Of a DNA stretch of 64,000 nt, positions 18,180 through 52,954 are shown piece after piece. The stretch spans positions 21,886,001-21,950,000 of the forward strand of contig NC_073392.1 of assembly GCF_028641065.1 (NCBI RefSeq), in the 5' to 3' direction. The stretch's first letter is position 1. Every line of letters starts with the position of its first letter. The notes beneath the pieces were generated by a model, which was not told the DNA's origin, made no database searches, and saw only the letters and a list, made by a program, of their open reading frames with translations. Position numbers and translations under genes: made by a program. Origin of the DNA: Leucoraja erinacea. Lineage: Eukaryota.

Positions 18180-18913
18180 TAGTGGATTTAATACATTCTT
18201 CATGTACAATCACAAATCAGGGCAAGAGGCAACAAGATCCAAATTACACAAATTCCATCAAACCAATGCGGCTGGATTTGAATGACAGGAGCATTGGGCA
18301 TGAGATGTCTTTGATTGAGAAGACATGGAACCTAATGTTGATTTGTTGCATTATAATGTAGCTCAAGCAAGTATTAACTGTACATGAGCATGGTTTTCGT
18401 ATTCTGTAAGTGTCAAGCATATGTATGTGCTTGCTGGGGTTGAAGTTTCTAGGGGGAGAGTTGGGGAAATGATGGGGTGGGTAAAAAGAAACGATGCAGG
18501 AGAATGGAAGATGCAAATATGTTTTGTCATCTACTGTATATTCCATCAAAATACATGGTGCAGTGAAATGTATTTGATTCTTCAAAGATGCTTGGTCTTT
18601 TGACAAATGCAACTCTAAATGCACCAATGCTGCAGCAAATGATTCAATCTGCTCTCAATAACTCTGATGCAGAGTTTCAGTCCTTCAGTTAACATGATCT
18701 TGACTCCTCCAGCTTGTCTCTTGGTTAAGTACAGTAATTCAGTAATTGCTGAGTAAGTGAGTTCACTGTGTCTGTCAGTCAACCTACAACATGGTCATCC
18801 GTAATGCTATAGGTAGGAGTGAACATACAGCAGTCTCATTACATTTACAAGTTTTGTTTTTTAAATAATAAACATGAGGTCATCCCTTGTTCATTACTAT
18901 ACTGACCCTAGAA

Positions 18914-19082
18914 CTGGCCAAATTTTGTGTCTTCCACCACAGTGATGAATGCTGTGGTGGATGTTTGTGTTAGATTTCTATTGTGTATTGTGTGTTCTTT
19001 CTCATTGTATCACTGCTGACATATTCATTTCACTTGCACTTTATGTGCAATGTGACGAATAAACCCGTATTGTATTGTATTG
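18914..19082 (+). mobile_element. 5'-truncated copy of the element ending at 63756
   Basis: Near-identical to 63586-63756, including the (gtatt)n tail. Confidence 0.85.
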
Positions 19083-19319
19083 AAATGAGAGGGTCGAAGA
19101 TAAAATCCATTCTCACTGCTGATTCAACTGATGCCAACCTTTCAAGGATGGAGGTTGTAGCTGAATTCCGCATGCCTTGTTCAAGAGAAGGTTAGTCAAG
19201 ATTCCTTTCCTGATTCCATTCCAACAAGCTTGCTACAATGTGGAGGCGTGAGAATCAAGTTAGGGTCTACCGTGATTGCCCCCACAGTCAAATAGACTGC
19301 TAGTTCACAATATGGTTCA

Positions 19320-19641
19320 CAACATCATCAAGGACCCACACCATCCTGGCCACACACTCATCTCTCCACTGCCATCAGGTAGAAAGTACAGGAGCCTGAA
19401 ATCTGGTACATCCAGCTTCAGGAACAGCTTCTTCCCCACAGCCATCAGGTTGTTAAACTCCCCATCAAACAAACTGAACTGTAACAGCCTATTGTACCAT
19501 CTGTTTATTTATGTGTATTTATATGGTCTATGCTATATAGACACACTGAACTGTTCTGTATTTATGCTTACAATATTCTGTTGTACTGCAGCAAGCAAGA
19601 ATTTCATTGTCCTATCTGGGACACATGACAATAAACTCTCT
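19320..19641 (+). mobile_element. Rex1/Babar LINE 3' fragment
   Basis: IIKDPHHPGHTLISPLPSGRKYRSL...RNSFFPTAIRLLN; tail catgacaataaa. Confidence 0.8.
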
Positions 19642-20878
19642 TAGAAACATAGAAAACAGGTGCAGGAGAAGGCCATTCGGCCCTTCGAGCCAGCACCACC
19701 ATTCATTGTGACCATGGCTGATCGTCCCCAATCAATAACCCGTGCCTGCCTTCTCCCCATATCCCTTGATTCCACCAGCCCCTAGAGCTCTATCTAACTC
19801 TCTCTTAAATCCATCCAGTGATTTGGCCTCTGCTGCCCTCTGTGGCAGGGAATTCCACAAATTCACAACTCTCTGGGTGAAAAAGTTTTTTCTCACCTCA
19901 GCCTTAAATGGCCTCCCCTTTATTCTGAGACTGGCCCCTGGTTCTGGACTCACCCAACATTGGGAACATTTTTCCTGCATCTAGCTTGTCCAGACCTTTT
20001 ATAATTTTATATGTTTCTATAAGACCCCCCCCCCCCATCCTTCTAAGCTCCAGTGAATACAAATCTTTTCAATCTTTCCTCATATGACAATCCTGCTATC
20101 CCAGGAATCAATCTCATGAACCTATGCTGCACTGCCTCAATCACAAGGATGTCCTTCCTCAAATTAGGAGACCAAAACTGTACACAATACTCCAGATGTG
20201 GTCTTACCAGAGCACTATACAACTGCAGAAGAACCTCTCTACTCCTATACTGAAATCCTTTTGTTATGAAGGTCAACATTCCATTAGCTTTCTTCACTGC
20301 CTGCTGTACCTGCAAGCCAACTTTCAGTGACCTGTGTACAAGGACACCCAGGTCTCGCTGTACCTCCCCCTTACCTAACATAACCCCATTGAGATAATAA
20401 TCTGCCCCCTTGTTTTTGCCACCAAAGTGGATAACCTCACATTTATCTATATTATACTGCATCTGCCTTGCATCTGCCCACACACTCACCCTGTTCAGGT
20501 CATCCTGCAACCTCCTAACATTCTCTTCACAGTTCACACTGCCACCCAGCTTTGTGTTATCCGCAAACTTGCTAGTGTTGCTCCTAATTCCCTCTTCCAA
20601 ATCATTAATATATATAGTAAACAGTTGCGGCCCCAACACCGAGCCTTGCGGCACTCCACTCGCCACTGCCTGCCATTCTGAAAAGGACCCGTTCACTCCT
20701 ACTCTTTGCTTCCTGTCTCCAACCAATTTTCTATCCACGTCAACACCCTACCCCCAATACCAAATACTCTAATTTTAGTCACCAGTCTCCCATGCAGGAC
20801 CTTATCAAAGGCTTTCTGAAAGTCTAGATACACTACATCCACTGGCTCCCGTTCATCCATTTTGTTTGTCACATCCTG
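19642..20878 (-). mobile_element. CR1 (HER1-like) LINE, RT through 3' tail
   Basis: ORF 20043-20738 contains GVPQGSVLGP, KFADN and LVRPHLEYC. Confidence 0.92.
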
Positions 20879-21151
20879 ACTTGACTTGATATGGAAGTGT
20901 GTTATCTGAGCACCTGAAAATTCAGCAAGACTCACAATCTTTGAGAAAGAGGCTGAAAATTCAAGAGGCTATTTCCATCAAACAGAACTCAATCTACTAA
21001 GAGTTGAGATTTATTTTAGTTACACTCTGCACTGTGGTACAAATCTCAGAAGTTTAAATTGCTTACAATTAATATATTAACAAAGCAATTTTTATAATCT
21101 TTACATTGGACAATAGCTATGAAATACCAGTGCATGCCTTGGGTTACTTAC

Positions 21152-21235
21152 CAAGGACTGAAATACCAGCAAACCATATTTCTCCGTGTTGTCATCTAAA
21201 ATTGTAAACAATGTATCTAAAATGTCCTGTAAAAA
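21152..21235 (-). CDS. DOCK3: DOCK3 exon FLQDILDTLFTILDDNTEKYGLLVFQSL
   Basis: 84 nt, polypyrimidine tract, cag|TTT...TTG|gtaagt, phase 0 to 0; translated by hand. Confidence 0.95.
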
Positions 21236-21379
21236 CTGGAAAAGAGAAAAGCGTTAGCTTGGAGATATTCTTCAGTATCACTGATATCCACTGCTTAAGC
21301 ATTTACACTGAAATTAAATCTTTCAGAAATAGGGATATTTTTAAATTCCCTTTTCAAATCAGCCTTCAACATTAAGGAG

Positions 21380-21700
21380 TGAATGAATGAATGAATGAAT
21401 GAATGAATGAATGAATAAGTTTATTGGCCAAGTATTCACATACAAGGAATTTGCCTTGATGCTCTGCCCGCATGTGACAACATGACATACAGTGATAGTT
21501 AGGAAGGACACATAAAACATTAATAATAAAACATTATCGATTAAACATGTGAATTAAATAAGAATTAAATAATGAATTAATAGAGCAAAAGGAGGCTACA
21601 GGTTTTTGGTTATTGAGTAGAGCTACTACTCATGGAAAAAAACTGTTTTTATGTCTGGCTGTGGCAGCTTTGACAATACGGACTGTGGCAGCTTTGATAG
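21380..21700 (-). mobile_element. Rex1/Babar 3' fragment with (ATTC)n tail
   Basis: Minus strand reads VKAATARHKNSFFP*VVALLN; tail aattccttgtatgtgaatacttggccaataaa followed by a microsatellite. Confidence 0.75.
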
Positions 21701-22140
21701 TCAGTGGTTTGATTGTCTCCGCAATGAATTACCCAGTCAACACCCCATCTGATAAAGAATTGCAGAGGCAAAGGAGGATGGTTTCACTTGTGAATGGTGT
21801 CTGCTGGGCACACTACCATTTTTCAATGCATTCTTCAATCTGTGAGATGCTGATATTAACTGCTATCTACTCCATCACTACCTGTGAGGGTATCAACTGA
21901 ATCTACAACTGTAATTTAAATGGTCGCTGCAGTTAATAGCTATTTGGCAGAAGGAGTAGAGGGATACTAGTGCCAGTGAAATCATGACATAATCATTGAC
22001 TTTGGGAGAAAGGTTGTATGGATTAATAATACATAGAGATACAAAGTAAATCATATATACATACAACAGACCAAAGTTTATAAATCTATTCTGAGGGCAT
22101 TATATCTCCTCAATAATTAACGATGCTATCAGATGGTCTT

Positions 22141-23705
22141 ATAACCATATAACCATATAACAATTACAGCACGGAAACAGGCCATCTCGGCCCTACAAGT
22201 CTGTGCCGAACAATTATTTCCCCTTAGTCCCACCTGCCTGCACTCATACCATAACCCTCCATTCCCTTCTCATCCATATGCCTACCCAATTTATTTTTAA
22301 ATGATACCAACGAACCTGTCTCCACCACTTCCACTGGAAGCTCATTCCACACCGCTACCACTCTCTGAGTAAAGAAGTTCCCCCCTCATGTTACCCCTAA
22401 ACTTCTGTCCCTTAATTCTGAAGTCATGTCCTCTTGTTTGAATCTTCCCTATTCTCAAAGGGAAAAGCTTGTCCACATCAACTCTGTCTATCCCTCTCAT
22501 CATTTTAAAGACCACTATCAAGTCCCCCCTTAACCTTCTGCGCTCCAGAGAATAAAGACCTAACTTATTCAACCTTTCTCTGTAACTTAATTGTTGAAAC
22601 CCAGGCAACATTCTAGTAAATCTCCTCTGTACTCTCTCTATTTTGTTGACATCCTTCCTATAATTGCGCGACCAAAATTGTACACCATACTCCAGATTTG
22701 GTCTCACCAATGCCTTGTACAATTTTAACATTACATCCCAGCTTCTATACTCAATGCTCTGATTTATAAAGGCTAGCATACCAAAAGCTTACTTTACCAC
22801 CCTATCTATATGAGATTCCACCTTCAAGGAACTATGCACGGTTATTCCCAGATCCCTCTGTTCAACTGCATTCTTCAATTCCCTACCATTCACCATGTAC
22901 GTCCTATTTTGATTTGTCCTGCCAAGGTGTAGCACCTCACATTTATCAGCATTAAACTCCATCTGCCATCTTTCAGCCCATTCTTCCAAATGGCCTAAAT
23001 CACTCTGTAGACTTTGGAAAACCTCTTCATTATCCACAACACCCCCTATCTTGGTATCATCTGCATATTTACTAATCCAATTTACCACAACTTCATCCAG
23101 ATCATTGATGTACATGACAAACAACAAAGGACCCAACACAGATCCCTGAGGCACCCCACTAGTCACCTGCCTCCAACCCGACAAAGAACCATCCACTATT
23201 ACCCTCTGGCGTCTCCCATTCAGCCACTGTTGAATCCATCTTGCTGCTCCTGCATTTATACCCAACAGTTGAACCTTCTTAACCAACCTTCCATGAGGAA
23301 CCTTGTCAAAGGCCTTACTAAAGTCCATATAGACAACATCCACTGCTTTACCCTCGTCAATTTCCCTAGTAATCTCTTCAAAAAATTCAAGAAGATTAGT
23401 CAAACATGACCTTCCAGGTACAAATCCATGTTGACTGTTCCTAATCAGACCCTGTTTATCCAGATGCTTATATATATTATCTCTAAGTATCTTTTCCATT
23501 AATTTGCCCACCACTGAAGTCAAACTAACAGGTCTATAATTGCTAGGTTTACTCTTAGAACCCTTTTTAAACAATGGAACAACATGCGCAGTACGCCAAT
23601 CCTCGGGGACTATTCCCGTTTCTAATGACATTTGAAATATTTCTGTCATAGCCCCGGCTATTTCTACACTAACTTCCCTCAATGTCCTAGGGAATATCCT
23701 GTCAT
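22141..23705 (-). mobile_element. Young 5'-truncated CR1 LINE with near-intact RT
   Basis: ORFs 22789-23682 (YRPVSLTS, QHGF, YADD) and 22342-22779 are separated by a single stop; (TATATGGT)-type tail. Confidence 0.95.
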
Positions 23706-24059
23706 TGCTACTAGCTTGATGTTAATTTTTGCATCACTTTCCTATCTCTGCAGACAACAGTCAGGTAAATGACTCTTTCCGATGGGAGGGAGGGCAGGTT
23801 GTTCAAAAATGTATTAATTCATTTCAGGAGTAGGGGGGAAGGGTAGTTAGAGGCAGGAGTTTTTGTGATATTACTTCCAGGAACATGATCAAATCCTAGT
23901 CCATTTAATTTTGTACTAATAAATAATTGTTGAAACCCATGCCTTGCATCACAAGCCACCTTTATAATCTCACCTTTTGCTCCATTATATTCAACCACAC
24001 ATTGGGAAAAATCTGTCCAGATCTGAAAAGTCACATTACATAATGTCTTAAAATCAGAT

Positions 24060-24590
24060 CATGCAAAGGTGACAATGAGAGATGGGAAGTAGAGTTGTGA
24101 AGTAAGGGAGGTCAGTGAAATAAAAGGAAATGTGTGCAGAGCAAAAGGGAAAGATGACAGCAGGGGGAAGAAAGAAAGAATAGGTGCAGGTTGAGATGGA
24201 GAATTGGGGAGAATGGGACAGAGTGGGAAATGAGAAAGAGTAGGAAAGGAGAGTGGGTGAAAAGGGGGATTGGAAAAAGGGGAATGGAAAGGGAGGGAGA
24301 ATGAAAGGGAGCAGCAGGAAGGGTAAGAAGGCATGGGGTCCAGCAAAGGAGGGAAAGAGCAGAAAGAGGACCAGAGCAAAAAAAAGGGGAGAGTGAAGAG
24401 GGAAAGATGAGTCAGTGCAGAGAGGGGAGGAGGGGATGGGGAAAGTGCAGAGAAAATGAGCAGAGTTGCAAGTCAGAGTAATAGTGATGGGATATCGACA
24501 GTATGTAAATTTGCCAACAGGAGAAATATGGGGAGGAAATGAGAGGACAGAAATTAATAGAGAGCAATGGCAAGAAGAGAAATTGGGGAA
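24060..24590. repeat. Purine-rich low-complexity tract (pyrimidine-rich on the DOCK3 sense strand)
   Basis: GA-rich composition with no coding signal. Confidence 0.7.
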
Positions 24591-24684
24591 AATAAGGTTC
24601 AACATATGTTATTTGAATGAGATCCAGGATTTCACAATTATCTCTGGGTATACTACTGTAAACATGATCACAACATTGACTTAC

Positions 24685-24782
24685 TTTAACTATTTCTTCA
24701 CCGTTGACATGTCTCAACCTTCCCAGGATATCCATCACTCTGTCTGGCTGTGCTTTCCACTTCAAAAGGGCAAGGAGGTCAA
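24685..24782 (-). CDS. DOCK3: DOCK3 exon (V)DLLALLKWKAQPDRVMDILGRLRHVNGEEIVK
   Basis: 98 nt, tag|TT...AAA|gtaagt, phase 1 to 0. Confidence 0.96.
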
Positions 24783-24874
24783 CTAAACCCAATCAGAGAT
24801 AAGCCATTACAAAGCAAAATGCATATTGCTCAATAGTGTAACAAATCCCAAACTTCAATTGTAACTTCTCAGAT

Positions 24875-25508
24875 CATAAAGTGATCTCTTCACGTGCATC
24901 TCTTCAAACCTCATCTACTGCATTTGTTGCTTCTGAAATGTCCTCCTTTACAGTGGCAAAACCAAACATAGACAAGGTGACTGTTTTGCTGAACACTTGC
25001 ACTCCGTCTGCCAAGGCCTGCTGGATCTCCTGGTTGCTAACTATTTTATTTCCGCTTCTCATTCCCATATCGACGTTTCAGTCATTGGCCTCCTCCATTG
25101 CCATAGGCATACTGGAGGAACAGCACCTCACATTCTGCTTGGGTAGCTTAGAACCTAACCAAATGAGCATTGAATTCTCCAATTTCAAGTAATATCCCCA
25201 CCCCAATCCCACCCTTACCTTGGTTTCCACTCATTTCTCCCACTATCTCTCAAATCCCCCCCATTCTCACGTTATTCCTTTCCCTTCCTTTATACGCTTA
25301 TCTTCAATCCCAAAGTTTCCCATCTTTTTTTTTATACTCTCTGTTCCCTTCCCCATCCCCTTCTACCCATATCATTCCCTCCACCTTTACATTTCACTCC
25401 TCCTCTTCTCTGCTTATCTGACACCCTTTGGTTTCCTTTTCACCTCCAGCCTTTGTCACTTACTCCACCCATCTGCCAATCATCCCCAACCCCATCCTTA
25501 CCTGTGTT
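24875..25508 (+). mobile_element. Penelope-like element, GIY-YIG region and 3' UTR; resumes at about 27400-27485 after a CR1/Tc1 insertion
   Basis: ttcacgtgcatctcttcaaacctcatctactgcatt (FTCISSNLIYCI) and ctggaggaacagcacctcacattc (LEEQHLTF); continues with tatcacttgccagg...gtctgaagagggg. Confidence 0.75.
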
Positions 25509-27400
25509 ATAGACAATAGACAGGTGCAGGAGTAGGCCATTCAGCCCATTGAGCCAGCACCAGCATTCAATGTGATCATGGTTGATCATCCCCAATCAGT
25601 ATCCCGTTCCTGCCTTCTCCCCATATCCCCTGACTCCGCTATCTTTAAGAGCCCTATCTAGCTCTCTCTTGAAAGTATCCAGAGAACAGGCCTCCACCGC
25701 CATCTGAGGCAGAGAATTCCACAGACTTGTAACTCTGTGTGAAAAAGTGTTTCGTCATCTCCGTTCTAAATGGCTTACCCCTTATTCTTAAACTGTGGTG
25801 TGTGTGGCCCCTGGATTTGGACTCCCCCAACATCGGGAACATGTTTCCTGCCTCTAGCTTGTCCAAACCCTTAATAATCTTATATGTTTCAATAAGATCC
25901 CCTCTCATCCTTCTAAATTCCAGAGTATACAAGCCCAGCTACTCCATTCTCTCCGTATAGGACAGTCCCGCCATCCCGGGAATTAACCTTGTAAACCCAC
26001 GCTGCAGTCCTTCAATAGCAAAAATGTCCTTCCCCATATTAGGGGACCAAAACTGCACACAATACTCCTGGTGTGGTCTCACTAGGGCCCTGTACAACTG
26101 CAGAAGGACATCTTTGCTCCTATACTCAACTCCTCTTGTTATGAAGGCGAACATGCCATTAGTTTTATTCACTGCCTGCTGTACCTGCTTGCTTACTTTC
26201 ATTGACTGATGAACAAGGACCCCCAGATCCCGTAGTACTTCCCCTTTTCCCAACTTGTCACCATTTAGATAATAATCTGCCTTCCTGTTTTTGCTACCAA
26301 AGTGGATAACCTCACATTTATCCATATTAAACTGCATCTGCCATGCCTCTGCGTACTCAGCCAATCTGGCAAGTGGCAAGAAGAAAGCCATTGTTGAAAA
26401 AAAGCCATAAGAAGTCCCGTTTGCAGTTTGCCACAAGCCATGTGGGGGACACAGCAATCATGTGGAGGAAGGTGCTCTGGTCAGATGAGACCAAAATTGA
26501 AGTTTTTGGCCTAAATGCAAAATGCTATGTGTGGCGGAAAACTAACACTGCACATCACCCTGAACACACCATCCCCACTGTGAAACATGGTGGTGGCAGC
26601 ATCATGCTGTGGGGATGCTTTTCTTCAGCAGGACAGGGAAGCTGGTCAGAGTTGATGGGAAGATGGATGGTGCCAAATACAGGGCAAATCTTGGAAGAAA
26701 ACCTGTTAGAGTCTGCAAAAGACTTGAGACTGGGGCGGAGGTTCACCTTCCAGCAGGACAACGACCCTAAACATACAGCCAGAGCTACAATGGAATGGTT
26801 TAGATCAAAGCATATTCATGTGTTAGAATGGCTCAGTCAAAGTCCAGACCTAAATCCAATTGAGAATCTCTGGCAAGACTTGAAAATTGCTGTTCACAGA
26901 TGCTCTCCATCCAATCTGACTGAGCTTGAGCTATTTTGCAATGAAGAATGGGCAAAAATTTCAGTCTCTAGGTGTGCAAAGCTTCTATAGACATACCCCA
27001 AAAGACTTGCAGCTGTAACTGCAGCGAAAGGAGGTTCTACAAATTATTGACTCGGGGGGGCTGAATACTTTTGCACGCCACACTTTTCAGTTTTTTATTT
27101 GTAAAAAAATTTGAAAACCATGTATCATTTTCCTTCCACTTCACAATTATGCACCACTTTGTGTTGGTCTATCACATAAAATCCCAATAAAATACATTTA
27201 CGTTTGTGGTTGTAATGTGACAAAATGTGGAAAAGTTCAAGGGGTATGAATGCTTTTGCAAGCCACTGTATATTGTAAATAGCTGCGATCCCAGGACCAA
27301 GCCTCGCGGTACCCCACTAGTCACTGCGGTCCCAGCACCGAACCTTTGCGTACCCCACTAGTCACTGCGGTCCCAGCACCGAGCCTTGCGGTACCCCACT
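25509..27400 (-). mobile_element. CR1 LINE interrupted by Tc1 (26368-27268)
   Basis: CR1 tail at 25509; ORF 25939-26457; CR1 sequence resumes at 27269 (tatattgtaaatagctgc...). Confidence 0.88.
26368..27268 (+). mobile_element. Tc1 transposon, 5'-deleted, with DD34E catalytic domain and right TIR
   Basis: VLWSDETK, KHGGGSIMLWGCF, FQQDNDPKH + 34 aa + SPDLNPIENLW; ends ...gcaagccactg|TA; compensating frameshifts mid-ORF. Confidence 0.93.
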
Positions 27401-27485
27401 ATCAACTATCACTTGCCAGGCTTTGACCCATCGCCACCTCTGATTTTCAGCTTTTTCTCCTTTAGTCCAATTAGTCTGAAGAGGG

Positions 27486-28330
27486 GTAGACACAGAATGC
27501 TGGACTAACTCAGTGGATCAGGCAACATTTCTAGAGAACATGGATAGGTGACTTTTCGGGTCGGGACCATTCCTCAGACTGATTGTAATGGTTGGGGGAG
27601 GGGAGAAACATGGAAGTGAGACAAAAACAGCACAATTTAGTGCCGGCAAGGAGGTTTCCTGATAAGCGAATTGTTAGCCACAGATGATGTGAGCCAAACT
27701 GAATTTCATTAACCTCGCCACTACCTTCCATCCTGCCCTCAAATTTGCCTGGACTATTTCTAACACCTCTCTCCCCTTTCTCTATCCACCTCCATTAAAG
27801 GAGACAGGCTATCGAATGACGTCTACTACAAACCTATCTGCTCCCACAGGTATTATGTCTACACATTCTCCGACCCTGCTCTTGCGAAGGCACTATCCGC
27901 TACTCTCAATTCCTCCGTCTCTGCCACAACTGCTTCCAAGATGAGGCTTTCCATGTGAGATGTCCTCATTCTTTAGTGAACATGGTTAGCGCTCAGCTGC
28001 CATAGGTGGATCTCTCATTCGTGTCTCTTCTGTGTCCCGGAGTTCTGCTCTTGCTCCCTCTCTCCACAGATGCAACAAGGACAGGGTTCCCCTGGTACAC
28101 GCCTTTCACCCCACCAGCCTCCGCATCCAACAGATCATTCTCTGACATTTCCATCATGATCCCACCATCACATCTTCCCATCTCCACCCCTTTCCACTTT
28201 CCGCAGAGACTGACCCCTCTGCAACTCTTTGGTTCATCCCTTCCCACCCAAATCATCCCCTCCACAGGTACTCTCACCGCAGGAGTTGCAACATCTGTCC
28301 TTAAACCTCCTCCCTCGACTCCATCTACAC
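27486..28330. mobile_element. Penelope-like fragments: inverted terminal repeat (27486-27680, -) and RT C-terminal region (about 27690-28330, +)
   Basis: ttccatcctgccctcaaattt (FHPALKF), gacgtctactacaaacct (DVYYKP), tctcaattcctccgtctc (SQFLRL). Confidence 0.7.
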
Positions 28331-28567
28331 TAGCAATTTTTTAAACCCACTGACACCCAAGTACATCAGAGCTCTCATGTGGTCTCTGCGTCTGCGCTTC
28401 CATCTGGTCTTGTGGGCAATCGTAATTCCATTTCTGGGGAACATCTGTACAGTATCCAATGGGCACTAATATTGTGGCTCTGAGACTTGTTTCAATGAAA
28501 AGTAGAAGGTGCACCAGCACAGGAACTAATATAAAACTAGAAAGCAGCAACAATATTTCAACAGTAC

Positions 28568-28739
28568 CATTCTGTGTTAGTTTAGTAGATGAGAGTAGGG
28601 TTGAGATCCAGAAGAATTCTTTTGCACTTCGTTGGAATATATGACTGGATGGAATGTTGGGACAGCCATTAAAGTCTTCTTTACAGCAGGGGAGACCCAG
28701 GTACAGCCCATGGTTACTGAAAGTGCTGTTTTCATCACA
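28568..28739 (-). CDS. DOCK3: DOCK3 exon CDENSTFSNHGLYLGLPCCKEDFNGCPNIPSSHIFQRSAKEFFWISTLLSSTKLTQN
   Basis: 172 nt, cag|TGT...AATG|gtactg, phase 0 to 1; the STKLTQN motif ends DHR-1. Confidence 0.96.
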
Positions 28740-28999
28740 CTGTAAATTAAATTTCAGATTAATTAATCCTGTATATTCTTTGCCCTTCTCACCAAGCAGC
28801 AAAGGGCAAGAATTAAAGTGATTACTTTTTAAATAAAATGCATCATATTGATTGGCTGTGTATACAAATAGAACTAAGTCTAGAACACAATTGTGATGTC
28901 TAACTGCTAGTGGGTGCAACCTGATTTGTCTTTATTATCCAAGCTCAACAGAGAGACTGCCAAAAAATGACAAAGTGTTGGGCTTTTGCTCCAGGGGGT

Positions 29000-29680
29000 T
29001 CAAGAACAATGATGCATTGCTCTTAATTTTCTAAAATTTTCCAGATTCCAGGTTCACAGAAAGTTCCACTATATTAGTAAATGGCAAATTGTAAATATTT
29101 TATTCAAGAAAGTAACACAACTATAGGCCAGTTAGCCTACTATTTGTTGAGGGATAAATTAAAAGCCATTATGAAATAAGTTAAAGCAGAACACTTAGAA
29201 AAAAATCAAGGTAATCAGGCAAATTCTGCATTGGTCTGTGAAGGGGAAAACATGTTTGACCAATGTAGTGGATTTGCCTTAAGTAAAATAATAAATGTAT
29301 ATACTATGCATAAATCACCAAGAATTTAGTAAGGTACTCATCAAAAGCTATTGCAGAAAATAAAAGGTGATGGTGCAGAAAGTAATATGTTTGTATGGCA
29401 GAAGATTAACTGACTAACAGAAAGCAGTGGCATACATGGGTCAAGGAGAGATGTAATCCCAAAATTTGATTCAACCTATGAAAGAAAGAAAACAGGAAGC
29501 AGCCTTTCATACAAAGTTAGTTCAAATCTGTTATTCCATTTACCAAAAGGCTGTGGATATATAATCAATTGCAGCTTTCAAGCCTGACTGACAGATTTGT
29601 GTTATGTGCAAATATTTCAGAAAAAGGGCAAAAAAGCAGGTAAATGAAATTGTGGTTTAGAATTTCCTTGAATGGTGCAC
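29000..29680 (+). mobile_element. Highly decayed CR1
   Basis: Residual aactataggccagttagcct (NYRPVSL) and ggggaaaacatgtttgaccaat (GKTCLTN). Confidence 0.6.
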
Positions 29681-30142
29681 TGGTGGTGTACTCTTGTTTC
29701 TAAATTTTGATGTGTTGCTCCAATTAGATTCCAATTGCTAGTTTTCCTAAAACTGAGAGTTCATAATTTCCATTCTCTGAATTATCTCCATTGAGAAACA
29801 GTCAATACTTTTGCTGGGAAAAAAATCTTTTTTTTTATCACAATTGTTATAGGATATAACTATTGAGCCAATTGAGTGACACACACTCTTCACAAGTGAC
29901 TGAGTGTGTTCATTCAAGGGTAACAGTTGCATCACCTCCTCTATATACTGTATATGTGCTTTCTTCAAGTGTAGCATTGTGCTATAACCTGAATTATAGT
30001 CCTATACTCAATGGGTACCATGAGTAGAACATGTACCATGAGTTAGAGTATCAGTAGCGTGGCTTTACAAGTAAAATTATGCCATTTACAAATGTAGCTG
30101 TTCCATTTTGTCTTTCAGCCAAGGTGCTGTTACATTTCCCCA

Positions 30143-30306
30143 GTAGACAAAATTGCTGGGGAAACTCAGCGGGTGAGGCAGCATCTATGGAGCAAAGGAA
30201 TAGGTGACGTTTCGGGTCGAGCCCTTCTTCAGATGCTGCCTCCAGCAGTTTCTCCAGCATTTTTGTCTACCTTCGATTTTTCCAACATCTGCAGTTCTTT
30301 CTTAAA
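30143..30306. mobile_element. 164-bp Penelope terminal-repeat insert made of two inverted halves, with 15-bp TSD
   Basis: TSD tgttacatttcccca at 30128-30142 and 30307-30321. Confidence 0.8.
30203..30233 (-). ncRNA. Minimal hammerhead-ribozyme-like core (Penelope type)
   Basis: Minus strand: t-CTGAAGA-a-GGG-ctcga-CCC-GAAAC-GTC-acc, i.e. CUGANGA, stem II, GAAA, palindromic ACGT stem III and a GUC site. Confidence 0.55.
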
Positions 30307-31295
30307 TGTTACATTTCCCCAACTCCTTTGTGGCTGCAAAATTCAACTTCTATATAATGATTTTAGCCCATATGATGTGAATTGCTAATATTTGGAAGAC
30401 ATTACCTGAACACAGTGTGAAAACATATTTAATTCTAACTATCCAAAGAAAATGGGATACTTTGAATGAAGAATCATCAAGCTACAAGGTAAACATTGGC
30501 TAAGAGGATATTGCTTTCTGTTTTGTCACATGTATAAAGGGCTAAAAGAAGATACTCAATCTCTAAGTATTGAGAGACAAATCTGCTATCAATATTGTTG
30601 ATAAAATATTGCTATCACTGACAGTAGAAGTAATATACAATGAACAATCTTGAATCTCCCAATACTGCAGAGCAGAGCAGTTCTGCCCCAGAGCAGTAAA
30701 TTCTCAGGGTCAACTAATATGTATTTTCTTCCTTCAATTCCCCGTTTATATTTATGGCAAATCATTTTGCATCAATTATAGTAAATACGTTAGGGCATTC
30801 AACAGTGTACTAATCTGATTATTTCAGAATTGCTTTTCGCTAACTTGATTTTGAATAATATCTGATCACATAAATTAATGCTGGCAGGGACTGTAATAAT
30901 CCACAGGCAACAACTGTAAGCTGTAAACTGTCACTTAAAGACAGGGTTCATAAGACTGTCAGAGGATGTCAAAATGTGTTCTATTTAACATGAAAGACAG
31001 TATATATTGTATTTTAAAGTATTTTTTACTGGGAGTATGGGAAGAATCCAGTAGAGCTACTTCAACATTTCCACAGGATAATTACAACAGAAATCAAGAT
31101 AAATTTCACAGATGACATTTTCATAATCACAGTCAGATATATTTAATTGTGATGTGCATCCGTGTATTGGACAGGGGTGGGAAGGCTAGAAAGGGAGCAT
31201 TTTACTGACACAAATGAGGCAAGGGTGTTCAAGTTCATAAGAGAAGTTAACATCTCGATGATTATTGAAGCTTTTCAAGTTTATTTGTTGGCTGA

Positions 31296-31568
31296 ACTTT
31301 ACGCTAGACTTTAGAGAATTAGCGTGGAAAAAGGTCCTTCGGCCCACCAAGTCTGTGCTGACTAGCGATCACCTCGTACACTAGCACGATCCGACACACT
31401 AGAGACAATTTACAATTTACAGATGCCAATTAACCTACAAACTTGTATATCTTTGGAGTTTGGGAGGAACCCAGAGCATCAGGAGAAAACCCATGCGGCC
31501 ACAGGGATAATGTACAAACTCTGTACAGTCAGCATCCATAGTCAGGACTGCTGAACTACTGTGTCACC
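31296..31568 (-). mobile_element. HE1-like V-SINE
   Basis: aattaacctacaaac...tctttggagt...ggaggaac...gaaaacccatgcggccacaggga. Confidence 0.8.
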
Positions 31569-31890
31569 CTAGCTTTGATTCCAGAATGTCATTGGAGAAG
31601 AGTTTTGGAAGTCCAGAAAGAAAATCACAGAATAAGTAAGTAAACTGTGATTTATGAACATTCAGAATCTATTGGCTACCCAGCATATAATTGAAATGTG
31701 TAAACTTCTAAATGCGGAGAATTGTGCTTGGCATTAATAGCACATTTCTGGGAGTATGCATTAGATTCAGATTCTGGTCAGTGATTTTTGGAAGGGCCAT
31801 TGCAAGGGACTGAATTTGGATGGTTGTTGTCAGGATACCACATACATGCAACGTCATTTCTAGGAGATGAACAAATGAGTAGTCCGTTAC

Positions 31891-31997
31891 CTTGTAAACA
31901 TACAGCTCATGAATGTCATCCGAAAGAGTTGTACCATCGTCTCGCATTAGTGGTGTAAATGCAAATCCGAATAATTTTTTTTCACCTTTGTCTTTTG
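31891..31997 (-). CDS. DOCK3: DOCK3 exon (T)KDKGEKKLFGFAFTPLMRDDGTTLSDDIHELYVYK
   Basis: 107 nt, tag|CA...AAG|gtaacg, phase 1 to 0; lies within ORF 31708-32043. Confidence 0.96.
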
Positions 31998-32894
31998 CTA
32001 AATATTGGACAATAAAATTAAAATTACAGACAAGGAGCAACATCTCAAATTATATTTATTACAAAAATGGTGAGCCACACATTTTTACCCGACTCTGTAA
32101 ACTTTGTGATAGAATGAACATAGTCATCTAGCACATCTTTCTCATGATGGGTGAAAATTGATCCTTAGGTTTCTGAGGAATGAGATTCCTCATTATTCTT
32201 CTGCAGTGAAAATGCATGACACTTGTTAAAAAAAAAAAGTGTTCTGCTATTGCACCTTTTAATTTAATTTCATTTGGCATTTGTTTTTTATACTGATTTA
32301 CATCCAGAATTCAGTCAGTTGATCTTTTTCCACATGCTTATGGCAAAATACTCTCAATGCATTTTCCATACAGCAGCACAGAGCCAAAAAGTATTTTGAA
32401 ATATATAATAGGGATACATGGTGAACATTAGTATATGAAGTTGCAACCAGATATTTGTGCAGATGAAGCCGTACATTAAATGAGGTTGTGGAAAGGCAAG
32501 CCCAGGTGACTTGATGTTAGAATGAATGTCGCCAAAGGAAAAATACAAAAGATCGAATTTTACGTGATTTGGGTAGTTTATATTTCTGAAGGAAAATAAC
32601 TCATGGCACTAGTTCATTCTTCACGAACACTTCAATATGACTTGCTCCATCTTGACGATCAAAGCCATGGGAGAATTACACATCAACATATTTGCAGTTT
32701 CTTTGTATAAAGAAAGGTTAGGAAGCGGTTAATATTAAATATATAGCTGTTACTTGTGTAGAAGCAAGAAAGGATGTCACAATAAAAAGAGTGGATGGAG
32801 AAAAATTAATTGTACTTATTTAATATAATTGTACTTCATCTGACATTGTATGTAGAAAGAATAAAAGTATTGTATAGGATGCACCATAGGATGC

Positions 32895-32960
32895 CCGTGC
32901 GCCTCAACGCAACCACGAGGTCGCGCAATTTGCGTGCCAAGTAAGTGGGACAGGCGCTTA
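32895..32960. mobile_element. Single end of a Harbinger MITE
   Basis: taagtgggacaggcgcttaa resembles the TIR at 56561-56577. Confidence 0.5.
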
Positions 32961-33169
32961 AGTTTACACACAAAGAGAAGAACTATAATCTAAATACTGA
33001 GGTAGTTAAGTCAATTCTTATATCTGTAGACAATAAGAAAATCTGTAAGGCAGGACAAACAAGAATCTTAAAGGATAAACTATATTTTGAGTAACAACTG
33101 TCCATTTGTGAAGGTTTAACGGGTTTTAATGAAGGATGTAACCTAGTGCGCTTTTCTCCATCAATTTTT

Positions 33170-33570
33170 GAAAGGTATAGAGAAGGTCATAATTGTTTTA
33201 AATTAGAGTATAGAGAAGGTCAGAGTCTTTTTTCACAGGATAGAAATGTTGAAATGTCAAATAATAGGAGGCATAGCTTTAAGATGAGAGGGGGAAAATT
33301 TAAAGGAGAAGTACAAGGAAAGATTTTCTTTACACAGTGGTGGGTGCTTGGAATGTGCTGCTGGGGGTAGGGGGGAGGGGGGGAACAAGGTGGTGGTGAA
33401 AGCAGGTGCAATGGTGGTGTTTAAAAGATATTTTGACAGGAAAATTAGCTTATAAAAATGGAGGGATATAAATCATGTGCTATGAAAGAGGTTAGTTTCC
33501 TTTGGCTTAATGGTCAACATAGACATGGTGGGCTGAAGGGCCTGTTCCTGTGCTACTTTTCTATGTTCTA
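33170..33570 (+). mobile_element. CR1 3' fragment
   Basis: RRHSFKMRGGKFKG...FFTQ; tail gggctgaagggcctgttcctgtgct. Confidence 0.75.
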
Positions 33571-33711
33571 AAAAGATAGAGATGGACCAATAATAAAGGG
33601 CTTAATGTGCGGGGAGACCATTTTCATTAACATAATGGAGAATTTGACAAAGATAGATTGAGAGCATTGAATTGCAGGTACTGTAGGTCTACATCTGCAG
33701 AGTAAGAAGTA

Positions 33712-34619
33712 CAGTAAACTCTCGTTAAAACAGACCATTGGGGAGGGGGGAGGTATCCATTATTGTCGATTGATCACTATAACACTATAAGTACGGTATT
33801 ATCATTGTATGTATTAGAAATAAAGAACTGCCGATGCTGGTTAATACACAAAAGGACACAAAAGTGTTGGAGTAACCCAGCAGGTCAGGCAGCTTCTCTG
33901 GAGAACATGAACAGGTGACATTTCGGATCAGGACTCTTTTTCAGACTAATTCAGTCTGCTAAGTTACTCCAGCACTTTGTATCATTTCACCTTAAAACTC
34001 GGTGCAATGTCACTAGTCTGCACCAACAAGCCTTTCTTATCCAGCTGCCACATGCGATCCAGTTGACGCTCACCTTTTGTGGCTCACATTGTAGCCCGTG
34101 GGGACAGCGCTTTTTTCCAGCCGCCGCCAATGACAGAACAAGCCCTTTCTACATTGGGGCTCCCTCCCCTTTCAGCAGCTGTTGCAGGGGCCATCACATT
34201 GCCAGCTCCCCGCTCCTCCACCACCTCCTCCTCCTTCTCCTTCTCCTGCCGTTTTGTCCACTCTGGCACTCTCCCCTCTACTGCCATCTCCTTTCCTCCT
34301 ACTCCCCCACAGTCGCCAACATCTTTCAAGGAGGAGGCGGTGATGGAGGGGGGGGGGGGGGGGGGGGGGGGTTGGGAGTGGACAAAATGACGGGCAACAG
34401 GAAGAAGTGGCAGATTGTGAGAGGGGAGGGAGCTACACATTACCAAGCACATCCTGTCGGTGGCAGCAGCCCGAAGAAAGCACTGTCCCCAGGGGCTACT
34501 ACATGAGCCGCAACAGTAGCTCATTAATGCACCTTCCAAGTTGGGGGTGGCATTGGTAGCCAGCGTGGGTAAGTCCGTCTGCTATAACCGAAATAGGGGT
34601 GTCTGTTAAGGGTTTATTG
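33712..34619. mobile_element. Tc1/pogo-type MITE with degenerate TIRs and TA TSD, containing a Penelope-repeat insert (about 33815-33985)
   Basis: TA|cagtaaactctcgttaaaacagac ... gtctgttaagggtttattg|TA; internal inverted repeat at about 34080-34137 / 34453-34513. Confidence 0.55.
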
Positions 34620-35356
34620 TATTCAAAAGAGAAATAGTAAGAGTTCAAGGCTATCATGTTCCTGTTAGGTAAAAGCCAGGGTAAATAATATAGGGAATCC
34701 TAGATATTGAGGGATATTCAGGGTTGGATAAAGAAAATAAAGAAAAATGTGTCAAGTATTGGGAACTAATGACAGTATCAATATTATACAAAGTGTGAGA
34801 AGTGCTTAAAAAAGGAATTAGGAGGGATAAGATGTCATGAAAAATATATGGTAGGCAGTATTTTGGCGAATCCGAAGGCATTCTACAAGTACTATATATT
34901 GTGGTAATAGATTAAAACCATTAAGGGCAACAGGTGTAAGTGTGGCCAAGTCGCATCTGTAAAGGAAAGGAATTGATGACATTTTGGGATTGAGACCCAG
35001 TATCAGGACTGAGAGTGGACTGAGAGGATAGACATCAGAGAGGAAGTGGTGAGTTACTGGGCAGTAGGTGATGGGTGGACTGAAGAGGGATGGAGGACAA
35101 ATGGACCAGGTTGGGGAGGATGGATGGAGTTGGGAGACAGAGGCGAATGAGTGAAAGGTGGAAAAAGACAAAGAAGCAAAAGCAGAGCTTTGGGCATTAA
35201 GGCTTTTGCAATTTATAAAGCTGGCTGTTCAATAACAAAGGAACAAACAACTTGTTCCTTTTAAATGTTTGTTGATTCAGCACTTTTGACTGACAACAAA
35301 TCTGTAATCTTTTCAACATTTTTATCAGTTTAAAACAATGACATGCGTGTACTTAC

Positions 35357-35519
35357 TTGAGCAGTGTCTGAACTCAAATCGAAGGTGAGACCCCCTGAAT
35401 TTGTCAACCGGAATGGGCAGTTTGATTATCTCACCCCATCGTGGACTGTTGTTGTGGTACATCACAAAGGAGCAATGTTCAGTTACGGACGGCTCTCCAG
35501 ATCCAAGACTGATACAGTC
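35357..35519 (-). CDS. DOCK3: DOCK3 exon DCISLGSGEPSVTEHCSFVMYHNNSPRWGEIIKLPIPVDKFRGSHLRFEFRHCS (DHR-1)
   Basis: 163 nt, tag|GAC...TCAA|gtaagt, phase 0 to 1; contains the DOCK-family HLRFEFRHCS motif. Not in the ORF track; translated by hand. Confidence 0.95.
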
Positions 35520-38984: not shown

Positions 38985-39380
38985 AGGATGAGGGGTGATC
39001 TTATAAAGGCGTGTAAAACATAAGAGGAATAAATAGGGTAGATGTACAGAATCCTTTACCCAGAGTAGGGAAATCAAGAATGAGGACATTGGTTTAAGTT
39101 GAGAGGGGAAAGATTTAATAGGAATCTGAGGGGCAACTTTTATACGCACAGGATGATTGATATATGGGATGAGTTGCTGGAGGAGGTAATTGATGCAGAA
39201 GCTATAACGCCATTTAAAAGACAATTGGACAGGTACTTAGATAGGAAAAGGTTAAAGGGATACGGGCCAAACAAGGGCAGATGGGACTGGTGTAGTTGGG
39301 GCACCTTGGTCAGCAGGGGCAAGCTGGGCCGAATGGCCTGTTCCATGCTGTATGACTCCAAGACTACGACACTATGACTC
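38985..39380 (+). mobile_element. CR1 3' fragment whose tail abuts the DOCK3 5' splice site
   Basis: RGERFNRNLRGNF; tail tgtatgactccaagactacgacactatgact. Confidence 0.85.
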
Positions 39381-39382
39381 AC

Positions 39383-39507
39383 CTTCAGTATTTCTCCATC
39401 TGCATAAAGAACGTACATTGTTACTTCAATGTTCTTCTGAACACTCTTTCCACCTCTCTCAAAATCCCCTCGTTCCAATGTCAGATACAGATCGTTCCTG
39501 ATGTCAC
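39383..39507 (-). CDS. DOCK3: DOCK3 coding exon, downstream tandem copy of the same DHR-1 exon
   Basis: Same 125-nt exon and splice sites, offset by 370 bp; splices in frame to 35357-35519. Confidence 0.85.
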
Positions 39508-39752
39508 CTGTATGATGTTCACATAACATGTCCAAACAAATTACATTAATAATATTGAAAGGAATAACTCAAGAATTAAATTGACATTCAACAAAGGTTC
39601 AGTGTTGATGGACATATGTGCAGATAGTTTACACTTAAGTTTACACGCAGTGGTGAATTACTTCAAAAAGGGAAAGGATAAGTACTGGCTGAACTGGGCC
39701 GAATGGCCTGTTCCATGCTGTATGACTCCAAGACTACGACACTATGACTCAC

Positions 39753-39877
39753 CTTCAGTATTTCTCCATCTGCATAAAGAACGTACATTGTTACTTCAAT
39801 GTTCTTCTGAACACTCTTTCCACCTCTCTCAAAATCCCCTCGTTCCAATGTCAGATACAGATCGTTCCTGATGTCAC
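39753..39877 (-). CDS. DOCK3: DOCK3 coding exon, start of DHR-1/C2 domain, upstream tandem copy: (G)DIRNDLYLTLERGDFERGGKSVQKNIEVTMYVLYADGEILK
   Basis: 125 nt, cag|GT..AAG|gtgagt, phase 1 to 0. The peptide matches the DOCK3 sequence as I recall it. Identical to the copy at 39383-39507. Confidence 0.85.
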
Positions 39878-42129
39878 CTGTATGATGTTCACATAACATG
39901 TCCAAACAAATTACATTAATAATATTGAAAGGAATAACTCAAGAATTAAATTGACATTCAACAAAGGTTCAGTGTTGATGGACATATGTGCAGATAGTTT
40001 ACACTTAAGTTTACACGCAGTGGTGAATTACTCCAAAAAGGGAAAGGATAAGTACTGGCTGAACACAGATACAAAGTCCCTGTGATTTCCATATAATTCC
40101 CAAGACTGTAACAAACATTGCCCACGGAGGGTTCTGTTGAATTACCCAATCAAAAATATTAATGCTATGTTTCTCCAACATTTCATGTTTTAAACTTAAA
40201 AAAATCTAGCAGTATTCTTCTGTTAGTTTGATCCACTTTTATCACTATAGCAGAGTATATTGTCTGATGCCCGAGTGCACACAAGGGAACATGAAATATT
40301 ATGAATAGTGTTGTAATATGGTATTACATTACTAACATTATTATTACCTATATGTTGTGTTATTACTCAAAATAGAATCAAGACAGTTGAACTTTCACTG
40401 CAAAAGTTGACAAGATTAGTTCATAACACACTTTTATTCAGTTAAATGAGTTGCAGTAAAACTTTGCATCATAGTGAAATGAACTTTCTGATATAAACAG
40501 TGGTTTTGAAGTGTGGTCAAAGAAAAGAGCAGTTAGTCAAAGTGCCCATGTAAGAAATCATATGGCACAACAATGCCACCCTTTAATATTTTAAGTTTAA
40601 TATTTATGTTTATGCTAATAAATAAAATGGCATAGAATGATGAAATGTGGTTAAATCAGGAAGTCTTATTTAAGCATTGGAAAAAACAAAAATATGTATT
40701 TTTACACAAATAGTCTGTTTTCAAAGAATTGGAAATAGAAACATTCTGATGCCATTTCTGATTTGTACATTTGATGTAGGTAATGTGACGCAGCACACTA
40801 TTCAACAAATTCCAATCCAACTCACTGATACCTCATCCTTAGCATCAATAAATCATTTGAGTGTACCACATTTTCAAATGTCTTGAGCATGTATTTGTAA
40901 TTGCTTCTGGGAATCTTAGAGGAAGACAGTTGACGACCAACATTTTAAATCATTAAGATACTGCTTCTTACTCTTGTAAATTGAACCTTAACGCGAGTGG
41001 TAAATTCTCACTGTGTCTTAAACTGGGAGCTGTTCTAAATATTTTGCTTAACATTCATAGAAATTATTTATGGTATATATTTAATTTCCAACCACCACCC
41101 ATGCTCCCAAACCATGGGTAAAAATCACCATGTCAGTAAGGTACAATAAGTATACGAATGACATAGAAAGAGATCTTGTTCATCTGTGCTAGTTTTTACC
41201 TTCCATTCAAAGCTATAGACAGAAATGTCTACGAATACTTGATGTTACATGACTAACAATTTGGTACACAACTATGATATTCAGTATAAAGAAACAATTT
41301 AAAACAACAAAATCAGGTCAGTTTTCACCCGATGAAAGAGAAACAGGGTTGATTTCCCTTTACACAGGTGCTGTCTGACCCACGTATTTCCAACATTTTG
41401 TATTTAAAAATCATCAGTCATGTCTAGAATAAAGTTCATTTTAATTTTGCACAACAGGCATGCAGTTCTCTAGCTTTAGTTTTCTCTCATTAGATCCTCC
41501 CCATCAAAGGAAATGGGGAAGTGTCTTATTGAGGTTCTACTTTGACGGCTTTTGTCTACCCATACTTTTCACTGGCAAAGTTTATTTTTAAAGAGTGATG
41601 GAATCAATAAAAACATCAAAAAGGGTTGCATGTCCACTTCAGCCATGTAGCCATGGAACCAAGACAAAAATATATTTCAATTTAGCATTGCACAGAGGCC
41701 AGATAGGTAACATTATGTGATTGCAGACTTATTTTCAATACCGTCCACAAACGGTGTATAGAAACTATTGTAAAATACAGAAAATATCAAAATGTTACTT
41801 AAATTTGTTCATTTCAGGATGAAAGGAAGCAGTAAACTGGAAGCCACAATTAATGTAATAAAAATGCCTACAAATTCTGTATTTCGAGCTAAATTCTCTC
41901 CTGTCAAAGCTTTATTAATACATAAATGCCTTTTCTCAAAAGTTCAGGCTATGACTTTCCCAATCCAGCATGGGCTTTAATGTACTGTCATGGATGACCA
42001 GAGGATATCTGTGGCTACACATGGTCGCAGGCTAGAAATTAGAAGATGATTCCAGAGGAGATGGTTAAAGTCACTACACCCATTTCCTCCACCCATCATC
42101 CTCATGATTCTGCCAATGTTAGGGATTAC

Positions 42130-48575: not shown

Positions 48576-49342
48576 AAACTGACTTTCAATTAAACTTTTT
48601 GTTGTGAACACCAACAATTTCATAAGTGACAAGTGCCATCTTAAGATGTAGATTCCATGCTTGCTTCTTGATCCATCAGTGTTACGAATATATTATGTAT
48701 ATTAGGTCTCTAGACACAAATTGTCCACATTTTTGTTCTATAAAACAACATTTTGGACGGGATTGACAACTAGAATATTTAATCTCCTCACTGGATTTCT
48801 TTGCTTGTGACCTTTGGAATGCACTTCACAAGACAAAGACATCCCAGCATCCTACAGCTACATTGTGTGAAATCTGGAAACATTTCTATACTGAGAACTA
48901 GAATTCAACGCAATGGCTATGACTTTAAAGACAGGTGCCTGTATAAGATACTAAATTGGGTTAATTTCTCCTGTAGCATGTTTATTTTTGTGTTTGATCT
49001 GAATTATGTTTTAATCATTTTATGTGAATTTAAAAGCTTTATAAAAGCTATATATATAGAATAAAAGCTATATATAGAATACATTTTTTAGGAACACATT
49101 TAGTTTACAACGGTGTAATGAAGCTGTGGTTTTAGAGCATGTAGGGTGACACTCATTTTTGGAAAATATGCAATGCAGCCAATGCAGTCCAGCCACAGGA
49201 TAATAAAATGGTTTGTTTACTGAGGCAAATGGAGTAGCCTTAACATGAGTATTTTTGCATACATGCCTGTTAAGTGCAATGTATAGTTATGAAGGAAGCA
49301 AGCAGTGTGAACACTGCAAACAAACAGGCATTGCGGACTTAC

Positions 49343-49360
49343 ACCCTACTATCTTCATCT
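49343..49360 (-). CDS. Candidate 18-nt alternative microexon of DOCK3 (AGATGAAGATAGTAGGGT)
   Basis: Minus strand reads TGACTAAT (branch-like) ... ttatccctcttcccctctttctctgctgcag|18 nt|gtaagt. Open in phase 1, the phase of the host intron. No transcript evidence. Confidence 0.5.
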
Positions 49361-51491
49361 CTGCAGCAGAGAAAGAGGGGAAGAGGGATAACACAAAGAT
49401 TGTGACATTAGTCAACAGAACAATATATAACCAAACACTGGGATTTACACTTTCAGTAAATAACAGACTATATTATAATTAAAACATTGCTGCAATTAAC
49501 AGGGACACAGTTTTGAAAGTTAAAGCAGAACAATAGAAAAGGATTATTATCAAATGGAGAAATTAATCAGGAGATTCAATGCCACCGTTTGTTTGTTGCC
49601 TTTCAAAACATATGCTCTATTTACATCAATAAATGTTTTGAATTCAACCTTATTATGCAATTATCAGTGAGCATCACAAAACAGATTGCTCAAATCGATT
49701 TTCCACATACCTTCCATCTAATACTTAATCCTTAATTTAGGACAAGGCCACCAAAAATTTCAAAAGCAATCATTAAATATATTCATAAAATTAGTTAAAT
49801 ATTAGAAATAGCTCAAAGTTTCATGCAAGTAGATCTAGCATTTACAAGTTCATCTGTTCCTGGTCACATCGTTTTGGCTTCAGTAATAATCTTTTAAATA
49901 TGCATGCACGTGAATATAATTCAAAGAGAGGGGAAGCAAAATGACCATCATCAAAGTTACTTTATTTTTGCTGTATCATTCCATATTACAGGAAACCTAC
50001 TTTGTACAACAATTTTGCATATAAGAGAAAGATGCATAACAGGGATGCATATTCTACATGTGTACAACAATGCAAAGAGTTTATTATATTCTTATAAATA
50101 AAAAAATACATTGAAATGTGAGGAATGAGTAGCAGGAAGTATCTCTTCATTAATGATAAAGATTAAAATTTAAATTTAAAATTCTTAATTCAGAGCCTGA
50201 GGAAGAGTTGTGTGTGTTAATAAGGGAACTGCAACAACTCCAGAAGATAATTATGATATGTAAAGTCTTGATCTTAAACTTGAACACAGTTGAATAATAA
50301 ATGTCATGGATCATCAGGAGATACGATAATGGGAAAACTGTTCATAACGACAAGATCACTGGTATGTTGCGGCAAGTTCACAACAGATAGCAAGAAACAA
50401 AAAAGGCTTGAGGAACAAGAAAAGGACAAATAGAGCAACAATTGTATCTTAAAAATACCTATTCTAAATTCATCATTAGTAAGGTACATGTAGTACCTGT
50501 AAATGTATAGTGACATTGAAAAAAACAATACATTTAATATGTGGTTATCATGGGAACAACAAGCTATTTGCATTGTTATCAAGTTTTATAAAGTTCAAGG
50601 GTCCTATTTATTTTATCAGGGACAAGTATTTATCAGTAATTGTCATTCACATCTGTGATTACCGATTCAAATAAATGTACCAATATATAGTGATTACTAC
50701 TGCAAATATCATGGCATTTTAGAAATAACTATTTCTGCGCTACCCACTTATCATTTAACAATTTTATAGTTGTATTCAAGCCTGGAGAAGACAAAGGTCC
50801 TTCTGCTGCACTATACACTTTACATAGCACATTTCTACTTATGTAATAATTCAAGGCAAAGCATGAAATATTCTCGAATACATGGTACAAGTAATTAGAT
50901 CTCTGATAATCAACTATTCTTTTCAGTTAACAATAGACCAAAACATATTATAAAGGATATTGAGCATAGATTTCAAAAGGGAAGGTCAAACTACAACAGC
51001 CTTATTATTTTTTTTGACATAGCAACAGAAGTAGTAGTAGATGTGACATAAGATTTTCAAAAGATATATAAATACTGCATGACTAGAGTGTGTGGATTCA
51101 GGTTACAAGTAGAAAGATTGAACGATAACTACAGAATAAAAAGAGGAGCGTTTAAGGATCAGTGCTGTGATCAATGTTCATAATTTACATGGCATCTATA
51201 GTTTATGAAATTAGAAATATAATTTCCATATGTACAAAATACCAACAAATAAGCAAATAAGAAATGGAAAAATGCATCAAAATGAAAAAAACGTTTTTCA
51301 AAATGCATGTGCAACAACCAACTTCAAATAATTATAAGATGTTACATTATGCTACAAAGCATAAAGAGGCCATATATTGGATAATAAGAGTCTGAAAGAA
51401 CTTGAAGAACACGTTAAAAAATATTAAGAAGTAAAGTTACGAAAATAAAATAAATTTTATTACTGTGCTTGAACTACTGCTGTTTGTGATA

Positions 51492-52818: not shown

Positions 52819-52954
52819 TATATATAAATGGCTTGGGCGTAAACATAGGTGGATTGCTTAGTAAGTTTGCAGATTACACCAAGATTGCTGGGGTCACGGA
52901 CTGTGAAGAAGGTTGTCAAAGTATATAATGGGATATAGAGCAGCTACAGCTACT

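Follow-up and report, generated by a model that had tools for sequence, protein, structure and literature searches.

The question raised by this locus is whether an 18-nt segment inside a DOCK3 intron of Leucoraja erinacea is a genuine coding microexon and, if so, how its inclusion could be controlled and what it would do to the protein. The window, i.e. the whole 64,000-nucleotide stretch of contig NC_073392.1 that was analysed, had been described in a first-pass annotation as holding a candidate unannotated neural microexon just before the DHR-1 lipid-binding domain. On the sequence records, it can be regarded as virtually certain that the exon exists in the stated frame, that gene models use it alternatively, that its peptide is identical between species and that it lies in the C2/DHR-1 linker. 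The best overall explanation, which we consider probable, is that of an ancient, alternatively spliced 18-nt DOCK3 coding microexon of the SRRM3/4-neural kind that would tune the joint between C2 and DHR-1.

In tblastn with named DOCK3 proteins, the DOCK3 exons map to the minus strand, at 39877 and lower coordinates, with the upstream exon outside the window (Table 1). Protein identity to Leucoraja erinacea DOCK3 is 98-100% for the pair of exons nearest the microexon, the window exons share with that protein residues absent from Rhinoraja, and homologue searches return DOCK3 records, which identifies the exons as those of DOCK3, a DOCK-B Rac GEF. The tandem duplication found downstream contains the whole 125-nt constitutive exon, whose second copy lies at 39383-39507, and the use of both copies would shift the frame; it is either an assembly error or a very recent allele. 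The acceptor of this constitutive exon (39878-39937) is much weaker in pyrimidines (0.45 and 0.53) than that of the microexon. The introns also harbor broken reading frames (45771-47661, 52939-54469, 58565-60962, 61558-62571 and 26331-26990), which we take to be transposable elements, given their reverse-transcriptase-like pieces and, at 26331-26990, a transposase-like one.

Table 1. Coordinates in the window of the microexon, its splice signals and the surrounding DOCK3 features.
Feature	Position	Strand	Remarks
Branch-point consensus TGACTAAT	49407..49414	-	Likely branch A 49408, 48 nt upstream of the exon (-48)
Extended polypyrimidine tract, UCU/CUC-rich	49369..49388	-	Pyrimidines 0.91 at -5..-15, 0.93 at -16..-30
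Two UGC motifs (-8, -5) and 3' splice-site AG	49361..49368	-	From sequence
18-nt phase-1 cassette microexon	49343..49360	-	P-G-D linker becomes P-EMKIVGC-D
5' splice donor GTAAGT	49337..49342	-	Exonic -3..-1 is GGT, non-consensus
GCATG, possible RBFOX site	49262..49266	-	+77; not distinguishable from chance
Downstream constitutive exon, start of DHR-1, DIRND...EILK	39753..39877	-	125 nt, phase 1 to 0
370-bp tandem duplication, head-to-tail	39324..40064		One mismatch (39663)
Further DOCK3 exons, DHR-1 and start of helical repeat region	3620..35519	-	tblastn
DOCK3 exons	35519-35357, 31997-31891, 28739-28568, 21235-21152	-	tblastn
DOCK3 exons, approximate bounds	about 24790-24680, about 8183-8082, about 3706-3620	-	tblastn

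Each motif named in the first-pass annotation was recovered on the minus strand at the position given there. The exon length falls within 3-27 nt and is a multiple of three, and, as claimed, the exon is stop-free in the phase that the next exon requires, which is also the only one in which MKIVG is read. Each of its two junctions interrupts a codon, that of E on one side and that of C on the other; the product with the exon reads EMKIVGC-DIRND and the product without it G-DIRND. The pyrimidine tract ends in tctcTGCTGCAG at 49361 and is extended, with a fraction of 0.93 at -16..-30; of six constitutive acceptors set beside it, five stay at or below 0.6 over that interval. No other AG occurs between -79 and -2, and the UGC motifs, which overlap the acceptor itself, lie between the AG and a branch point that is assigned from its consensus. 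The ACTAAT is most simply read as that branch point; TGACTAAT also matches the QKI-type ACUAAY. The intronic part of the donor is consensus, the exonic part is not. The GCATG, put forward as an RBFOX site, is at chance level, because six copies occur on the minus strand between 47.5 and 52.5 kb and the +77 copy has no leading T. A hairpin of the exon with its own pyrimidine tract was also considered and rejected as not significant (z -1.36, 21 of 200 shuffles being as good).

The splice signature was compared with chance expectation. A loose scan of both strands of the window (YAG, exon of 3-51 nt, strong donor, pyrimidines >=75%) returned the microexon site as its sole match; Markov-resampled windows contain a mean of 2.45 such sites (40 resamplings), hence chance can account for the loose signature taken by itself. 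When the criteria were tightened, after the site had been seen, 1 of 300 resamplings satisfied them. The chance that a random 18-mer encodes the peptide is about 3e-9, and it is the exact peptide in the isoforms of other species that decides in favour of a real exon.

These isoforms were obtained from three homologue searches and three cluster look-ups, which yielded 501 proteins besides the window exon, 399 of them spanning the junction. Sampling took the best 120 matches per homologue search and at most 15 members per cluster (the main amniote cluster, for instance, has 1457 members and contributed 15), and records from one species are not independent. Early searches, confined to proteins of up to 2000 residues, gave the insert in 0 of 126 junction-spanning records among the matches listed; it appeared only with the addition of full-length proteins from elasmobranchs and birds. 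Linker length deviates in 8 of the 399 junction-spanning DOCK3 records listed, and all eight, which are predicted gene models, read P-EMKIVGC-DIRND letter for letter, exactly the six-residue change that had been forecast. They come from seven species, i.e. one shark, one stingray, one skate and four birds: Mustelus asterias (XP_078065470.1), Hemitrygon akajei (XP_072928654.1), Rhinoraja longicauda (XP_078269878.1), Melospiza melodia (XP_063020572.1 and XP_063020566.1), Zonotrichia leucophrys (XP_064580017.1), Podargus strigoides (KAM6325157.1) and Pterocles gutturalis (KAM6121330.1). The Cys is kept in every one of them, the window translation agrees at 44-47 of 48 residues with the six that were compared, and the upstream exon ends in ..VIMP/G, precisely as had been assumed. 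For Mustelus, Hemitrygon and Zonotrichia there are, in addition, isoforms that skip the exon, again as predicted models and not as reads.

Concerning the distribution of the insert, with groups assigned from record names, it is present in 3 of 34 elasmobranch and 5 of 107 bird records listed (absent from 31 and 102, respectively). Among the records listed it was found in 0 of 43 from mammals, 0 of 7 from amphibians, 0 of 3 from reptiles and 0 of 12 from chimaeras, and among the matches listed in 0 of the remaining 193, mostly ray-finned fish and unnamed. Absence at the level of a group does not follow from these counts, because the records are samples and most birds are without the insert though four have it. 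The single Leucoraja erinacea DOCK3 record examined is without it. A degenerate pattern of the exon gave 0 matches in metagenome contigs, where the control gave three weak loci and no vertebrate DOCK3 exon. Near-full-length records (>1900 residues, those listed) carry the 18-nt exon in 7 of 234 cases and a 9-residue (27-nt) segment in 184 of 234; judged from these records, the inclusion form is the minor one. Other optional DOCK3 segments are common to vertebrate groups, namely the 9 residues TQLFGPYPS near 1165, the 14 residues VRGQRCPQCTAEIT near 930 and 41 residues near 1830. The Mustelus X1 record has the 18-nt exon and lacks the 9-residue segment.

The peptide being identical in three elasmobranchs and four birds, with the other groups listed without it, the sequences place the origin of the microexon at least as early as the split between sharks and birds. 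Sharks and songbirds separated roughly 450 million years ago. That the exon was unannotated proved only partly true, because RefSeq and GenBank predicted models of seven species already contain it; what stands is that no paper describing it was found in the literature searched, while VastDB may already list the event for chicken or elephant shark. DOCK3 gave no match in the supplements of PMC7821500 (8 files), PMC12626424 (12 files) and PMC12868881 (1 file), and in those of PMC7935315 it appears in expression rows only; none of these supplements lists the 18-nt exon. The passages available of PMC10606569 give 2030 residues for the longest human DOCK3 isoform and make no mention of the 18-nt exon, the DOCK3 event of PMC12143990 is, in the accessible part, an exon-skipping event, and the DOCK3 event of PMC12424998 is given no location in its available passages. 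Hence, the exon is apparently uncharacterised, though already in predicted gene models.

RNA, to which the first-pass annotation had pointed for junction reads, was covered through the contigs of four presumed-RNA runs from related species (4 of the 24 listed, tissues unlabelled), aligned to 39700-49900. The alignments are dominated by repeats, and contigs drop rare forms. Contigs of all four runs cover the constitutive exon 39753..39877. The 49343/39877 joint expected from inclusion was not seen among the contig rows listed for these four runs, where rare forms drop out, and this result does not speak against inclusion in other transcripts. Listed contigs of runs X4 and X7 reach 39880, matching CAG three bases past the acceptor, and the CAG at that point is carried by the skipping mRNA and not by the inclusion mRNA, which implies that these two contigs are skipping forms. 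A 199-base, low-depth contig of run X2 spans 49163-49356 with 22 differences and one gap, i.e. most of the microexon and the following intron; therefore that relative has similar sequence across the exon and donor. This contig is either unspliced RNA or the relative's DNA.

At the protein level, the claimed position just before DHR-1 is borne out by Pfam, which puts DOCK_N at 70-412 and DOCK-C2 (DHR-1) from 417, the insert occupying 418-424 at their boundary. An alignment to DOCK5 shows it as one unbroken gap of six residues at ..ILP/GDVRND. The linker is indel-free in 120 of the 132 distant DOCK representatives that cover it (from 150 at 50% identity), and the other 12 mostly differ by one residue. 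In one representative (P0544) 11 extra residues stand at this P-G/D junction; they may reflect faulty gene prediction or a separate insertion event. For the inclusion form of Rhinoraja, an AlphaFold model built on 46 aligned sequences (mean pLDDT 86) has both beta-sandwiches folded and matches the DOCK5 and DOCK1 DHR-1 structures, with the insert as a coil between strands 404-408 and 428-438, the last of the first C2 and the first of DHR-1. The model is silent on the shape of the insert itself, because its pLDDT is below 50 and the query alone carried it in the alignment; the single-sequence fold (pLDDT 35) was unusable.

In DOCK5, according to the available part of PMC8294757, the two domains pack edge to edge in a tandem module that facilitates membrane binding. 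Relative to the first DHR-1 strand (428-438), the basic loop GDFERGGKSVQK comes after and the insert before. By the DOCK1 DHR-1 structure, this loop would form part of the lipid pocket. Since the insert and the loop flank that strand on opposite sides, an effect on the pocket is less likely than one on the joint, and the model suggests that the insert probably sits away from the pocket, at the far end of the strand. The Cys codon needs a T as last exon base; a G there would give a more consensus donor and the ancestral Gly-Asp. That none of the eight records has lost the Cys suggests that either the residue itself or a weak donor is under selection.

Neurites grow under the action of DOCK3 on Rac1, and a developmental disorder results when DOCK3 is lost; DHR-1 binds PIP3 and WAVE. 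From the splice-site layout it is likely that the microexon is skipped by default, with inclusion in a minority of transcripts, and that some neurons include it once SRRM3/4 bind at the UGCs lying between the distant branch point and the AG. A more tentative proposal, which we hold at slightly below even, is that the six residues lengthen the C2/DHR-1 joint, loosening or re-angling it, or add a small binding surface. The altered joint would tune membrane or partner engagement and through it local Rac1 activation, the lipid pocket and the catalytic DHR-2 not being reshaped. Six residues unchanged from shark to songbird in a linker of stable length point to an undescribed tuning of the membrane-binding module.

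The alternative that best survives, though rather unlikely, keeps a real conserved coding microexon and changes its control, to another cell type (muscle, glia or testis) or to QKI or RBFOX. The ACTAAT doubles as a QKI-type motif, and gene models contain the exon much less often than the 9-residue segment, without which it occurs in Mustelus X1. DOCK3 acts in muscle as well, as available passages of PMC12424998 state, but branch distance, extended pyrimidine tract and UGCs follow the neural-microexon layout, and neurons express DOCK3 highly according to PMC10606569.

Somewhat less probable is a direct action of the insert on lipid binding, through its Lys or through S-acylation of the junction-made Cys as a membrane anchor. 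It would account for a Cys kept in all eight records although the T-ending exon appears to cost donor consensus, and would suit a tandem C2 module said to facilitate membrane binding (PMC8294757, in its accessible text). The weak donor could itself be the selected feature, however, the insert would lie at the end of the strand remote from the pocket, and a literature search on DOCK3 palmitoylation and DHR-1 found nothing relevant among the papers listed. An equally doubtful, more far-reaching reading has the exon as a switch in a small neuron or sensory class, opening a joint of constant length across eukaryotic DOCK proteins and making, over the splice junction, an invariant Cys for lipidation or partner binding, and either hidden in human DOCK3 or lost independently in mammals and ray-finned fish. 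Its survival in human DOCK3 would mean that a gene linked to a neurodevelopmental disorder has a coding exon so far overlooked.

A conserved intronic regulatory element, with incidental splicing, peptide identity from nucleotide constraint and models copied by homology, is very improbable: it would suit the low representation in records, the lack of an inclusion contig among the rows listed and two GenBank bird models that may rest on homology, but it sits badly with a length divisible by three, with a peptide that comes from the required phase alone, with intact acceptor and donor in seven species from two lineages far apart, and with three species that have both inclusion and skipping isoforms. 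Such coexisting models are not normally the output of ab initio prediction.

We return to the preferred reading, an SRRM3/4-type neural microexon, and to known systems of this kind. In available passages, neural microexons have a median branch distance of 45-47 nt and an extended tract (PMC12871342), and 74-79% of targets have a UGC in the interval from branch point to AG, where it helps without being strictly needed, with a UCU/CUC..UGC enhancer described for such microexons (10.1101/2024.09.17.613571). The DOCK3 exon resembles these SRRM3/4 microexons, as far as the two sources were accessible, in being an 18-nt, frame-preserving, deeply conserved cassette with a branch point at -48, an extended tract and UGC. 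Hence, in every sequence feature scored it looks like a member of the class, and membership is probable. Unlike that class, it appears to be a minor form and was not found in the mammal and ray-finned fish records listed.

Within the same gene, the Srrm3 study, in its accessible part, reports a zebrafish 27-nt dock3 exon, DreEX0027949, whose inclusion falls from 86 to 26 percent in mutant eyes (PMC9303857), and because this exon is Srrm3-dependent in the eye, DOCK3 belongs to the Srrm3 programme. A mouse brain circRNA table lists Dock3 microexons of 27 and 29 nt and none of 18 nt in the portion covered (PMC8355340; files 12-20 outside the search). Its length makes it probable that the 27-nt exon corresponds to TQLFGPYPS, the segment found around residue 1165 and immediately ahead of DHR-2. 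Our exon is likewise a short, in-frame, optional exon of that gene, as far as these sources go (PMC9303857; also PMC8355340), whereas it has 18 nt, lies at residue 418 on the DOCK_N/DHR-1 boundary and is much rarer in the records listed, hence is not identical with the 27-nt exon or with the DOCK microexons of DHR-2. In Drosophila, sponge, of the same gene family, has a neural microexon of the same length, whose deletion impairs climbing and lifespan, according to 10.64898/2026.09.05.749416. The sponge and the vertebrate DOCK3/DOCK4 microexons described in available passages fall in DHR-2, in contrast to the present one, which precedes DHR-1 some 750 or more residues upstream.

The best model for the action of the DOCK3 exon may be, by analogy, the conserved neuronal microexon of DAAM1, by which, according to the accessible text of PMC12056172, a linker of this actin regulator becomes longer. 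Protein and domain differ, and in that text the function is demonstrated for DAAM1, whereas for the DOCK3 exon it is inferred. With these likenesses and differences, the DOCK3 exon remains one further example of a well-studied class.
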